Origin: Thermoanaerobaculia bacterium
GTDB lineage: Bacteria; Acidobacteriota; Thermoanaerobaculia; Multivoradales; UBA5704
Direction of reading: 5' to 3'
Assembly (NCBI GenBank): GCA_044226625.1
Contig: JBGAGQ010000029.1
Coordinates: 1-64,000 of the forward strand
Length of the DNA: 64,000 nt
The translations under genes and the position numbers were made by a program. This document shows, piece by piece, positions 3,938-55,192 of the stretch (position 1 is its first letter; each line of letters opens with the position of its first letter). Below the pieces are notes generated by a model. That model worked only from the letters and a program-made list of their open reading frames with translations, was not told where the DNA came from and did no database searches.

Positions 3938-4132
3938 ATGAAGCGCAAGCTCCGCCTCAATCGCGACACGATCGTCCGCCTCTCTCCCGCCGAGATCGAA
4001 GGTGCCCAGGGCGGCGGAATCTCCCGCATCACCGACGTCGGCTGCCCGCAGTACACGGTGTACCGCAGCTGCGCGATCAGTTGCGGCGGTACCTGTTTCG
4101 AGATCACCTGCGCTCCCTCGGCCTGCTTCTAA
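3938..4132 (+). CDS. RiPP (lanthipeptide-like) precursor P1, 64 aa, double-Gly leader
   Basis: AAGGAG RBS; MKRKLRLNRDTIVRLSPAEIEGAQGG then GISRITDVGCPQYTVYRSCAISCGGTCFEITCAPSACF (6 Cys). Confidence 0.8.
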   Translation: MKRKLRLNRDTIVRLSPAEIEGAQGGGISRITDVGCPQYTVYRSCAISCGGTCFEITCAPSACF

Positions 4133-4173
4133 GGCCGGATTCAAGGGGCTGCTTCTAACAGAGGCCCGAGGCT

Positions 4174-4197
4174 CGCCCGCCCCACCCGGGGCGGGCG
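4174..4197. terminator. GC-rich hairpin after P1
   Basis: CGCCCGCCCC-ACCC-GGGGCGGGCG, 10-bp stem; no U-tract. Confidence 0.4.
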
Positions 4198-4293
4198 GCA
4201 CGTTGTCTCCAGCGTCGGAGAGGATCCCGCCCGCTACGGATTGGCCGGGCCGCGGCGAGGACGTCTCCGCTTCGGCTTCCGTACACTCCGCGC

Positions 4294-5127
4294 GTGATCA
4301 CTCGCCGCAGATTCCTTCGGCTCTCGTTGGGCGCGTCCGCGCTCGGCACGGGGCTCTATACCTGGCAGATCGAGCCGCATTGGCTGGAGATCGTCCGGCG
4401 CCCGTTGCCGATCGAGGGATTGCCGGCAGCGCTCGAAGGCAAGAGCCTCGCCCAGATCACCGACGTCCATGCCGGGCCGAGCGTCTCCGACCGGTACCTC
4501 TTCGAGACCTTCGACCGGGTGAAAGCCCTCGCCCCGGACGTGGTGGTCTACACGGGCGATTTCACGAGCTACGAGCCGGGGATCGTCGCGCACGCGGAGA
4601 GGGTGTATGCCGATCTTCCCCGCGGCCGGCTCGCGACGTTCGGCATCCTCGGCAACCACGACTACGGACCGAACTGGGCCCATCCGGAGTTGGCGGATCG
4701 CATCGCGGATCTCATGCGCTCGCTCGGGGTTCGGATCCTGCGCAACGAGGTGGCCGAGGTCGCGGGCCTTCAGATCGCCGGAATGGACGACCTTTGGGGG
4801 CATCGCTTCGACGGCGAACGGACGCTCGCCGCCTTGGACCGCCAACGGGCCTCGATCGTGCTGAGCCACAACCCGGACACCGTCGACCTTCCGGTCTGGA
4901 ATGGATATCGAGGCTGGATCCTCGCCGGCCACACGCATGGCGGGCAGTGCAAACCGCCGTTCCTTCCTCCGCCGATGATTCCAGTCAAGAACCGACGCTA
5001 CACCGCTGGCGAATTCGAGCTCGCCGGCGACCGGCGCCTCTATATCAGCCGGGGCGTCGGGCACCTGCTCCAGGTTCGCTTCAACGCCCGCCCGGAAGTT
5101 GCGGTCTTCGAACTTCAGGCCACATAG
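4294..5127 (+). CDS. Metallophosphoesterase (YkuE/YaeI-like), Tat-type N-terminus
   Basis: TRRRFL; DVH, GDF, GNHD, SHNPD and GHTHGGQ motifs. Confidence 0.9.
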   Translation: MITRRRFLRLSLGASALGTGLYTWQIEPHWLEIVRRPLPIEGLPAALEGKSLAQITDVHAGPSVSDRYLFETFDRVKALAPDVVVYTGDFTSYEPGIVAHAERVYADLPRGRLATFGILGNHDYGPNWAHPELADRIADLMRSLGVRILRNEVAEVAGLQIAGMDDLWGHRFDGERTLAALDRQRASIVLSHNPDTVDLPVWNGYRGWILAGHTHGGQCKPPFLPPPMIPVKNRRYTAGEFELAGDRRLYISRGVGHLLQVRFNARPEVAVFELQAT

Positions 5128-5159
5128 GTCCGTTCACCGTCGCGCCGCGCTCGGGAGGC

Positions 5160-5828
5160 TCAAATCCGCCCGGGATCTCGAAATCCCTTGAGGAAAAGCC
5201 AAACCACCAGGGCTAGCTGACATAAGCCGATCGGTGCGAGCAGGAGGAACATCACAGGGTATCCGAAGAAGGGCAGCGAAAGCGTCGCCATTTGCAGCAC
5301 CGACGCGGCGAGCCCCACGGCGGCGAGCGCGCGTGGAACCAGGGCGAAGCGAAACAGCATGGCGTAGAGCGCCAGCAGCACACCCCCGTCGGTCAGCCGA
5401 CCCGCGAAGTGCGCCCAATTCCGGGACGAGGCCACAACACCGCGCAGAGCCTGGAATTGCGCCTGTTCGGCCGGAGCGGCCTGGGCGTAAGCCTGAGAGA
5501 GCGACACCATGGACATGACGCTGGACTGTTCGAGCACCGCAACCGCCAGGCTCACGACGCCCATGCCGAAGAACCAGAGCGCCATCCTCTGGCTGAGCGG
5601 ACGAAAGAGCGGGTAGGCCAGGATCGTGATCGTCAGGAAGATCGCGCCGATCGCGATTCCCAACAACGCCGAGGCGCCGATCTGCCGGGCATGAGGCGCG
5701 GCAGTTTCCAGGAAACCCGGTTTGCCGAAAAGCGGTTTGGTCAGTGTGAAGTTCACGACGAAACTGCCCACCATCTGCGCCAGAAACAGGGCGCCGAGGG
5801 TTCGAGCCGCGCGCATTTCCCTTTCCAT
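5160..5828 (-). CDS. DUF4386-like membrane protein
   Basis: ATG 5828 after AAGGAG; ARTLGALFL N-terminus, about 6 TM, WLFLKGF C-terminus. Confidence 0.7.
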   Translation of the reverse strand: MEREMRAARTLGALFLAQMVGSFVVNFTLTKPLFGKPGFLETAAPHARQIGASALLGIAIGAIFLTITILAYPLFRPLSQRMALWFFGMGVVSLAVAVLEQSSVMSMVSLSQAYAQAAPAEQAQFQALRGVVASSRNWAHFAGRLTDGGVLLALYAMLFRFALVPRALAAVGLAASVLQMATLSLPFFGYPVMFLLLAPIGLCQLALVVWLFLKGFRDPGRI

Positions 5829-54068: not shown

Positions 54069-54128
54069 CGGCAACGCCTCCTCCGGGGCCGAGATCGCGG
54101 ACGATCGCGGCCCCGGAGGAACGAGCTC

Positions 54129-54764
54129 TCAGTTGCACTGCTTCCGGGTGTCGGTCGAATCGAACAGGTTCAAGACGTCGATGCCGATCCCGCAATCGAT
54201 CGCGTCGGACTCGCCGTCGAGCGCGTTGATCGTGTCTTTTCCGGAACTGCCGAAGATTCTGTCTTTGCCGCGGCCGCCGGTGATGTGATCGTCGCCGGTC
54301 CCGCCCTTGAGCAGATCGTCCCCCTCGTCGCCGTCGATCGTGTCGTTTCCCGTTCCGCCATCGATCGAATCGGGCACCAAGCTCCCCTTGATCACGTCGT
54401 CGCCCAATCCCCCGTCGATCGACATCGGGATCGCCTGCGCGGAGAACTTCTGGCTCGCCTTGTCGTTCTTGTCGCCGAGGACGAGGGCGATCAGCGAGCG
54501 CCGCTGGCAGACCGCACGGTTGCCGCTCGCCGTGCAGCCGGGCCCGACGAGAATCGTCTGCCGCGCCCGATCGGTGACGGCTACCCCGAGCGAGGTGTCG
54601 TCGCCGATCGGCGCCGTCGGATCGACCTCGATGTCGTTGACCTCGTTGTTGCCGGCGCGAAATACGAGGATGTCGTTCTCGATTTGGACCGTTCCGGCGC
54701 GCAGCGCCCCCGGAACGAGAGACAGCCCTCCGATCAAGACACAAACCCATTGGGTAGCACGCAT
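54129..54764 (-). CDS. Secreted RTX/hemolysin-type calcium-binding repeat protein
   Basis: GGAGG RBS; signal peptide; GGLGDD, GGTGND, GDEGDD, GGTGDD, GGRGKD nonapeptide repeats. Confidence 0.85.
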   Translation of the reverse strand: MRATQWVCVLIGGLSLVPGALRAGTVQIENDILVFRAGNNEVNDIEVDPTAPIGDDTSLGVAVTDRARQTILVGPGCTASGNRAVCQRRSLIALVLGDKNDKASQKFSAQAIPMSIDGGLGDDVIKGSLVPDSIDGGTGNDTIDGDEGDDLLKGGTGDDHITGGRGKDRIFGSSGKDTINALDGESDAIDCGIGIDVLNLFDSTDTRKQCN

Positions 54765-54886
54765 GGTTTTCCCTCCGATTGGGATCGTCAAGAGCGCTCT
54801 CGCGCTCGTCACCCATCATGGATTGAACGCCACCACGAACGGATCTACCGAAAGTCTGGATTTTCCGCGTCGAAAGTCGGGCACCC

Positions 54887-54924
54887 CTAATACCGACGCG
54901 ACTGGCGTTCGTCCTACCTCTCAG
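54887..54924 (+). promoter_or_regulatory. Putative promoter/operator upstream of precursor P2
   Basis: CTAATACCGAC-N12-CGTCCTACCTCTCAG, matching 3794-3830. Confidence 0.55.
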
Positions 54925-54991
54925 GGGCGTCCGCCGGCGTCTCGTCGCCCACGGATCGATCCGTCCCCGAGGTCAACTACGGGAGGAATCC

Positions 54992-55192
54992 ATGAAACGC
55001 AAGCTCCAACTCCACCGCGACACGATCATCCGCCTCACCCCCGTCGAAATGGAGGCCGCGCAGGGAGGCGCCGCGCCGACCCAGGACCGGAGCTGCTTGA
55101 TCGGCTCCTGCCTTTGTACGCTCCAGACCTGCGGCATCAGCTGCGGCGGCAGCTGCTTCCAGTACACCTGCCTCCAGCAGGCCTGCCAGTAA
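54992..55192 (+). CDS. RiPP (lanthipeptide-like) precursor P2, 66 aa
   Basis: [35 protein letters not shown] then [40 protein letters not shown] (8 Cys); paralog of P1. Confidence 0.82.

Follow-up and report, generated by a model that had tools for sequence, protein, structure and literature searches.

A dispersed family of class I lanthipeptide-type precursor genes in a soil Thermoanaerobaculia genome, probably served in trans by unclustered machinery

Results

Five small genes share a leader and carry cysteine-rich cores

The DNA analyzed here (the window) is a stretch of 64,000 nucleotides, G000:C16:1-64000, from contig C16 of genome G000, a 6.6-Mb Thermoanaerobaculia (Acidobacteriota) assembly of 133 contigs with about 66% G+C. 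It contains five short open reading frames (ORFs) that an original prediction, made from the letters of the window, had described as precursors like those of peptides that are ribosomally synthesized and then posttranslationally modified (RiPPs), with a common leader. This description stood up. All five ORFs translate stop-free, into 64, 55, 56, 48, and 66 amino acids (aa), and their alignment has an invariant M1, L5, L7, T11, and L15, an N terminus rich in Lys and Arg, and a Gly-Gly (GG) pair at residues 25 to 30 that ends each leader. Residue 9 is Arg or Lys except in precursor 3, where it is His. A Shine-Dalgarno-like purine run lies 5 to 10 nucleotides (nt) 5′ of every ATG, and G+C at third codon positions (GC3) is 0.85 to 0.95.

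Precursor gene 1 (3938 to 4132, plus strand; 64 aa) has its leader at 3938-4015 and a core at 4016-4129 with 6 Cys and 8 Ser or Thr; its GC3 is 0.86, and AAGGAG stands upstream. Precursor gene 2 (23721 to 23888, minus strand; 55 aa; GC3 0.95), preceded by AAGGAGG, has its leader at 23808-23888 and a core at 23724-23807 with 4 Cys and 4 Ser or Thr. It diverges from precursor gene 3 (24147 to 24317, plus strand; 56 aa; GC3 0.93), in which the leader, at 24147-24236, is followed by a core at 24237-24314 with 6 Cys and 7 Ser or Thr. The shortest, precursor gene 4 (49804 to 49950, plus strand; 48 aa; GC3 0.85), consists of a leader at 49804-49890 and a core at 49891-49947 with 3 Cys and 5 Ser or Thr, and the longest, precursor gene 5 (54992 to 55192, plus strand; 66 aa; GC3 0.91), of a leader at 54992-55069 and a core at 55070-55189 with 8 Cys and 8 Ser or Thr.

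Each ORF is followed within 70 nt by a G+C-rich stem-loop with a minimum free energy of −33 to −44 kcal/mol and a z-score of −2.1 to −4.3. Those of precursors 1, 3, 4, and 5 lie on the plus strand at 4171-4199 (a 68-nt fold, −38.7 kcal/mol, z −2.1), 24327-24353 (−36.3 kcal/mol, z −2.6), 49968-50007 (−33.2 kcal/mol, z −2.9), and 55199-55234 (−43.8 kcal/mol, z −4.3). The one that belongs to precursor 2 is on the minus strand at 23654-23714 (−39.9 kcal/mol, z −3.1), and none of 200 shuffles folded as well.

The five ORFs look like coding genes. We compared precursors 1 (3938), 3 (24147), and 5 (54992) with their nearest homologues from the same genus, in four pairs. The ratio of nonsynonymous to synonymous substitution rates (dN/dS) was 0.05 to 0.28 for the leader and 0.13 to 0.80 for the core, at a dS of 0.3 to 1.0, and all Cys residues were kept in the four pairs. 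The orthologue of precursor 1 in G002 has 85% DNA identity and keeps 6 of 6 Cys; those of precursor 5 in G001 and G003 have 80 to 81% identity and keep 8 of 8. In G001, the homologue of precursor 3 sits at a different locus and retains every Cys as well. By this comparison, the shared leader is under purifying selection. The original prediction also supposed that such genes are largely missed by gene callers, and this proved wrong: all five exact sequences are already in a public protein collection, listed with NCBI as source and the contig of 70,728 bases, that of precursor 2 on 8 contigs, so gene callers did not miss them.

The leader is of a known class I lanthipeptide type

Pfam gave no match for the five ORFs. 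Among NCBIfam models, all five leaders match NF038153 (lant_leader_L1a, “class I lanthipeptide”) at E values of 6e-4 to 0.1; precursors 1 to 5 score 19.9, 12.8, 16.9, 17.1, and 19.0 bits, respectively, all short of its curated cut-off of 22 bits. The other NCBIfam matches amount to a weak phage-family match for two of the five, and the scan found no Nif11- or NHLP-type leader in any of them. Six paralogues from elsewhere in G000 exceed the curated cut-off of NF038153 (22.4 to 25.8 bits), 14 copies match at an E value of ≤0.01, and none of 14 control genomes matches. Walker 2020 (BMC Genomics, PMC7268733) describes class I LanAs of Bacteroidetes in which an “LxLxKx5L motif” replaces FxLD; Gly-Gly terminates many of these leaders, and the clusters often include a C39 protease. 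Both the LxLxKx5L motif and the double-glycine end are present in the window five. Judged by sequence, the leader is of a known kind, the LxLxKx5L...GG leader of Gram-negative class I lanthipeptides, as had been suggested.

The window genes belong to a family of 51

The five leaders served to build a hidden Markov model (HMM), with which we searched the genome's 102,688 six-frame ORFs in repeated rounds at an E value of <0.001, with reversed sequences as a control. Successive rounds matched 24, 46, 51, and 51 ORFs, and the control gave 0 every time. What had been presented as a family of five thus numbers 51, spread over 31 contigs at 41 loci (after merging at 5 kb). Two of the additional members lie beyond the window on the same contig, at C16:67201-67380 (minus strand) and 67563-67715 (plus strand); like precursors 2 and 3, they are divergent. 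All 51 ORFs are intact and have a Shine-Dalgarno-like 4-mer upstream, and the median GC3 is 0.86. The 60-mers downstream of the genes fold at ≤−25 kcal/mol in 78% of cases versus 19% of random genomic 60-mers, which are mostly coding and make a crude control.

The cores have a median length of 35 aa and consist of 18% Cys, 15% Thr, 8% Ser, and 0.7% Lys, with a median of 6 Cys and 8 Ser plus Thr. Ser plus Thr equal or outnumber Cys in every listed core. The Cys count is odd in 28 of the 51, a poor fit to a product held by disulfides only. Median pairwise identity is 0.41 for leaders versus 0.22 for cores, and falls to 0.15 for the latter when Cys-Cys matches are not counted. A block resembling C-x-(I/V)-S-C-(G/A)-G-(T/S)-C-x-x-x-(T/S)-C is common to the cores of precursors 1 and 5 and of the G000 paralogues at C123:81411, C91:593, and C35:44313; we did not recognize it as a known target-binding motif.

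To look for a shared promoter, we tested which k-mers are enriched in the 150-nt regions preceding the 51 genes relative to 2,108 other gene starts. The words that emerged were all purine rich and Shine-Dalgarno-like. The best 6-mer (P = 3e-5) was not significant after correction for 4,096 words, and no regulon motif was found in these upstream regions.

A LanB, two LanCs, and a C39 exporter are encoded apart from each other

The modifying enzymes and exporter, expected by the original prediction to lie elsewhere in the genome, were located there. One full-length LanB of 1,123 aa is encoded at C93:86992-90363, with matches of 572 bits to PF04738 (Lant_dehydr_N) and 229 bits to PF14028 (Lant_dehydr_C); its PDB relatives are 9g04, MibB (5ehk), and NisB (4wd9). 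ABC/solute-binding genes and glycine-cleavage genes flank it. There are two LanC genes (PF05147), at C4:58629-59945 (LanC1) and C114:7232-8530 (LanC2), whose products are 41% identical to each other. Both keep the motifs AHG, WCYG, and CHG, aligned with those of NisC, which we take to be the catalytic His and the zinc ligands. On C114, LanC2 is by itself. LanC1 directly follows three precursors, which lie 129 to 810 bp upstream of it, so that a cluster containing a precursor with this leader does exist; these are the only 3 of the 51 that adjoin an enzyme gene. Pyruvate-dehydrogenase genes follow on the other side, after a metallo-beta-lactamase-fold gene that comes directly after LanC1 (G000:C4:59955-60824, L004:9956-10825) and resembles the quorum-quenching lactonase YtnP at 193.8 bits, below the cut-off of 425.

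One exporter with C39, ABC_membrane, and ABC_tran domains (787 aa) is encoded at C93:132017-134380, with an HlyD-like gene upstream. Its best NCBIfam match is the NHLP-type exporter TIGR03796, below cut-off, and its N-terminal part contains ...SDCG... and ...NHFVV..., presumably the C39 catalytic Cys and His motifs. LanB and the exporter are 45 kb apart on C93, and the machinery genes are not clustered. At the motif level, the machinery is apparently intact. For LanM, PF13575 had no match in the genome, in a search that matched no control genome either, and both LanC-like matches are in open frames of 466 to 549 aa, which is not LanM length. The genome also has 25 radical SAM matches and one YcaO. 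The arrangement differs in G005, a genome of the same genus (530 contigs, 85% complete), in which LanB directly follows the C39 exporter (G005:C448:3130-7901); in G000 and G001, about 45 kb of one contig separates the two.

The leader follows this LanB type

We then considered the leader and the enzymes together in 41 genomes, G000 and 40 relatives. The leader profile matches 24 of these, and all 24 have this type of LanB, as a single match of at least 495 bits in 21 and as pieces in G011, G018, and G022. Among the 17 leader-less genomes, it is present only in G029 (477 bits); G009 has a weaker LanB of 254 bits. Contrasts within genera (g6, g7, and g8) agree. Because kin are not independent, this co-occurrence is suggestive rather than statistical. 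C39 was rejected as a co-occurrence marker, since it does not discriminate (23 of 24 leader genomes versus 14 of 17 leader-less ones). The comparison suggests that the presence of the leader tracks this LanB type far more closely than C39.

In more distant genomes of the order, the leader occurs in canonical clusters, with a C39 exporter, precursor(s), LanC, and LanB side by side (G024:C142, G027:C11, G027:C7, and G030:C127). We also fetched 80 loci around LanB homologues and scanned them with the leader HMM. Precursors with this leader lie directly beside LanB homologues in records labeled Kofleriaceae, Archangium, Cystobacter, Myxococcus, Paenibacillus solanacearum, Actinomycetota, Bacillota, and Bryobacterales. 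Outside the phylum, the leader and this LanB clade are neighbors in genomes of five phyla. A Cystobacter fuscus record has a peptide with this leader type (L049:677-1189) some 4.8 kb upstream of its LanB homologue; Arg, Asp, His, and Tyr abound in the core of this peptide, which has only 3 Cys and so departs from the Cys/Thr-rich cores found elsewhere.

Finally, we modeled a complex of LanB residues 1 to 800 with precursor 5, both as alignments. It scored 0.65, and the best of 3 controls scored 0.00. The 0.65 mark is reached by 58 of 80 solved complexes and by 2 of 110 mismatched pairs, counts that apply here only roughly, because the model was given alignments of our own. The runs share at least 36% of their contacts, and the partner has a predicted local distance difference test (pLDDT) value of 38 or more. 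Confident contacts join residues 3 to 17 of precursor 5, the conserved motif, to LanB residues 197 to 265, so that the leader motif is predicted to dock on the N-terminal part of LanB. A complex of NisB with the nisin leader has already been solved, and the model's pass may therefore be partly memory, though the leader type differs.

Precursor copies turn over while the machinery stays

Conservation of the leader in relatives, a further point of the original prediction, was borne out: it is found in all seven other genomes of the genus, at 11 to 47 copies each, and the LanB and LanC set is likewise present in 7 of 7. The nearest named LanB records (82 to 85% identity) come from soil and other environmental metagenome-assembled genomes labeled Thermoanaerobaculia, Acidobacteriota, or Holophagales. 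Across 150 genomes drawn evenly from the phylum, 7 have any leader match, six with 1 or 2 copies and one with 11, so the expansion to 20 to 48 copies appears confined to this bacterial family and one neighboring family. The LanB locus is collinear with its housekeeping flanks within the genus, and LanB therefore behaves as a core gene and not as part of a mobile cluster.

The precursors behave differently. In G003, about 400 bp separate the hsdR orthologue from the tricorn one, and the 2.2-kb segment that carries precursors 2 and 3 is absent, which reflects either an insertion in G000 or a deletion in G003. The G001 homologue of precursor 3 is a roughly 320-bp insertion in a locus that has none in G000. 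Five genomes of the genus were searched for orthologues. Precursor 5 has one in 2 or 3 of them (G001, G003, and, more weakly, G002) and precursor 1 in one (G002), and for precursor 4 there was no DNA homologue in the five, although its flanking genes matched. These genome comparisons indicate that precursor copies come and go while the machinery stays. With conserved leaders, hypervariable cores, and gain and loss of copies between species, the system behaves as a natural diversity library.

Neighborhood of the five genes

The genes around the five precursors encode a metallophosphoesterase, a tricorn/S41 protease, an M23-VWA protein, an RTX protein, AraC regulators, and a type I HsdR. These neighbors are unrelated to peptide maturation, and whole-genome searches for LanB, LanC, C39, YcaO, and radical SAM gave matches on other contigs only, none on C16. 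The earlier view of each gene as standing alone, with no maturation genes nearby, is thus confirmed.

Directly downstream of precursor 4, at 50076-54068, a protein of 1,330 aa combines Peptidase_M23, VWA, an HpiC1-cyclase-like domain, and a carbohydrate-binding module. AraC-family regulator genes adjoin precursor 5 (55287-56147) and lie about 2 kb upstream of its paralogue precursor 1 (1184-1702). The 2.2-kb segment at 22198-24407 holds a 177-aa ORF without a Pfam match, a repetitive extragenic palindromic (REP)-like repeat, precursor 2, a gene relic, and precursor 3. The relic, about 120 bp in the spacer between the two precursors (23942-24063), derives from a gene for a BNR/sortilin-like repeat protein. 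Its matches, at 87% and 80%, are to the interior of a 627-aa ORF that is intact in G003 (L096) and to a stretch of G004. The REP-like repeat is a palindrome of about 70 bp that matches both strands and lies near precursors 1 and 2, at 3649-3719 and 23456-23540. It has 17 loci in G000 and dozens in genomes of the same genus, especially G002. We rejected it as a vehicle of precursor mobility because it lies within 500 bp of just 2 of the 51 precursors, too few for a link.

Discussion

A proposed trans-acting class I system

Gene structure, the signs of selection, the size of the family, enzymes that are present and intact at the motif level, their co-occurrence with the leader, and the adjacency seen in relatives make it probable, in our view, that the five ORFs are class I LanA genes of a dispersed, lineage-specific family of about 50 copies, served in trans by unclustered machinery. 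Each gene would be a small unit of its own, with its own ribosome-binding site and 3′ stem-loop, as its sequence indicates. The leader motif K-L-x-L-x-(R/K)-(E/D)-T-(L/I/V)-x-x-L may dock on the leader-binding region of the single full-length LanB. Given its two-domain architecture, this enzyme would dehydrate core Ser and Thr by glutamyl-tRNA-dependent glutamylation and elimination, a reaction established for NisB and MibB. Class I systems often do not work when their own tRNA-Glu and GluRS are missing (PMC9576775). One or both LanCs would then add Cys thiols to the dehydro residues to form thioether rings, and the sole C39 exporter, with its HlyD-like partner, would cut after GG (or GA/AG) and export the product. 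The idea of a genome-wide library was part of the original prediction. A genome-wide precursor family is there; its processing in trans as a library is the best-supported reading, on the basis of comparative genomics and one structure model.

Several points weigh against this interpretation. LanA genes usually share a cluster with LanB and LanC, and no LanB, LanC, or C39 lies on the contig of the window. Unlinked to any enzyme gene are 48 of the 51 precursors, including all five in the window, and their assignment therefore rests on leader similarity. The window leaders, at 12.8 to 19.9 bits, are below the curated NF038153 cut-off of 22 bits. By a heuristic guess of the cut site, leaders of the whole family end in GG in 29 of 51, GA in 9, AG in 8, and AA in 4, with no recognizable end in 1. 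C39 is not diagnostic, being found in leader genomes and leader-less ones alike. The cores do not imply a lantibiotic function, being noncationic (0.7% Lys) and with no lipid II-binding motif recognized in them. One paralogue has a radical SAM gene as its neighbor, as discussed below. The assembly is in 133 contigs with an estimated contamination of 5.5%, yet the same gene set is found in 7 of 7 genomes of the genus. Last, we infer binding, dehydration and ring chemistry, cleavage, export, and biological role from sequence comparison and the complex model.

Other readings of the dispersed copies

The dispersed copies could instead be unmodified, or at most disulfide-bonded, double-glycine bacteriocin-like peptides cut and exported by C39, with LanB and LanC serving only the three precursors linked to LanC1. 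A GG leader and the single C39 ABC exporter with its HlyD-like partner would suffice for this, the large majority of copies (48 of 51) are linked to neither LanB nor LanC, and C39 occurs widely in the order whether or not the leader family is present. However, dispersed and LanC-linked copies have the same leader, which the model docks on LanB, and this leader follows the LanB type far more tightly than it follows C39. The odd Cys number of more than half the cores (28 of 51), together with Ser plus Thr at least matching Cys in every listed core, also speaks against disulfides as the only modification. We regard this explanation as rather unlikely.

Some or all dispersed copies could also be substrates of another maturase that makes use of the same leader type, for instance a radical SAM/SPASM enzyme that forms thioethers of another kind. 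The genome offers candidates in its 25 radical SAM matches and one YcaO, and one paralogue, C17:5762-5986 (74 aa, 9 Cys), begins about 170 bp downstream of a gene for a radical SAM/SPASM protein of 455 aa (C17:4223-5590; L117). That protein is closest to the heme b synthase AhbD and to NirJ2, below cut-off (289.7 bits versus 500), and genes for an iron-sulfur (Fe-S) carrier and for cytochrome oxidase subunit II flank the pair. We rejected the protein as maturase of this paralogue; given its AhbD/NirJ2-like character and respiratory context, the adjacency is probably a coincidence. Moreover, this is 1 case in 51, the contig of the window has no radical SAM match, and in other phyla the neighbor of the leader is LanB, at the LanB-centered loci that we fetched. 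Another maturase is therefore very unlikely.

A third possibility, that duplication or transfer left the dispersed copies behind without function, silent or decaying, would fit their variable presence and position between species of the genus (including the 2.2-kb segment missing from G003), the lack of a DNA homologue of precursor 4 in five genomes of the genus, and the gene relic between precursors 2 and 3, but is extremely doubtful in view of 51 intact ORFs that each have a ribosome-binding site, a leader dN/dS of 0.05 to 0.28 at dS 0.3 to 1.0 with every Cys kept in the four pairs, and high copy numbers maintained in all seven other genomes of the genus.

Relation to known systems

If the precursors are class I LanAs matured in trans, their nearest known counterparts are the Gram-negative class I LanAs, a Bacteroidetes family that includes the pinensins. 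As NF038153 and Walker 2020 (PMC7268733) describe them, these have the same leader motif with a GG end and cores rich in Ser, Thr, and Cys. As with them, the genome has a full-length LanB, LanC, and a C39 exporter, and related genomes contain canonical clusters with the same leader. Clustering holds for the cases described so far; the mining in that study was limited to seven genes from LanC (PMC7268733). Here, 48 of 51 precursors are unlinked, and LanB, LanC, and the exporter lie apart from each other; the copy number reaches 20 to 48 per genome in one acidobacterial family, and the copies in the window score below the NF038153 cut-off. Clustering with LanB and LanC is usual for class I LanA but is not part of its chemical definition, and it is the sole usual feature that is absent here.

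In organization, the system recalls the prochlorosins and synechococcins (ProcA, with the class II enzymes ProcM and SyncM) of marine picocyanobacteria. These too (PMC7268733, PMC11251773) comprise dozens of scattered precursors whose leaders are conserved and whose cores are hypervariable, served by one set of enzymes encoded away from them and by a C39 ABC exporter, as predicted here. The differences are several. A tRNA-dependent LanB and separate LanCs take the place of LanM, and the leaders match neither the Nif11 nor the NHLP type. The cyclases keep the ordinary Cys-Cys-His pattern, whereas the ProcM-type cyclase is described as Cys-Cys-Cys (PMC11251773). Phylum and habitat also differ from those of the soil Acidobacteriota studied here. 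By this analogy, the system is most likely a functional analogue of the prochlorosins and not a member of that group.

With the nisin system (NisA/B/C/T/P), ours shares a two-domain LanB and a LanC with conserved motifs, and here too the leader is predicted to lie on the N-terminal domain of LanB. Unlike nisin's, the leader has no FNLD-type box, its removal would fall to a C39 exporter and not to a subtilisin-like NisP, and there is no single operon; nor are the cores cationic or equipped with a recognized lipid II motif (for the motif, see Walker 2020, PMC7268733). The likeness to double-glycine peptides exported by C39 is the GG in 5 of 5 window leaders and the one C39 ABC exporter in the genome.

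We found no description of a dispersed expansion of class I precursors in the literature, although the supplementary precursor tables of Walker 2020 may list acidobacterial entries. A class II (ThaM) cluster reported from another Thermoanaerobaculia order is a different system (PMC13083261). What is new here is the scale and the unclustered core machinery; the leader type itself is already known.

Implications

More broadly, we propose that, throughout an entire family of soil Thermoanaerobaculia, unclustered class I machinery has been inherited vertically, in the form of a lone LanB whose housekeeping locus is fixed, a divergent pair of LanCs, and one C39 exporter; that this machinery matures a fast-turnover library of 20 to 50 dispersed minigenes per genome; and that this is the first tRNA-dependent LanB/LanC counterpart of the prochlorosin system. 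For this wider proposal, we see the scales as evenly balanced. If it is true, the LanB/LanC pair would be naturally very promiscuous, with the two cyclases perhaps dividing ring topologies between them, and LanB and the two LanCs would have been selected in nature for some 50 unrelated cores, which would make them useful for lanthipeptide libraries. It would also expose a blind spot of cluster-based mining: no more than 3 of the 51 precursors would come to light in a search confined, as in Walker 2020, to the few genes nearest LanC. So far, the natural libraries described, with many precursors for one set of enzymes, are of class II (ProcM/SyncM), and those enzymes serve as engineering platforms. 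If our reading is correct, trans-acting RiPP libraries would have arisen independently, with different enzyme chemistry, in abundant uncultured soil bacteria.

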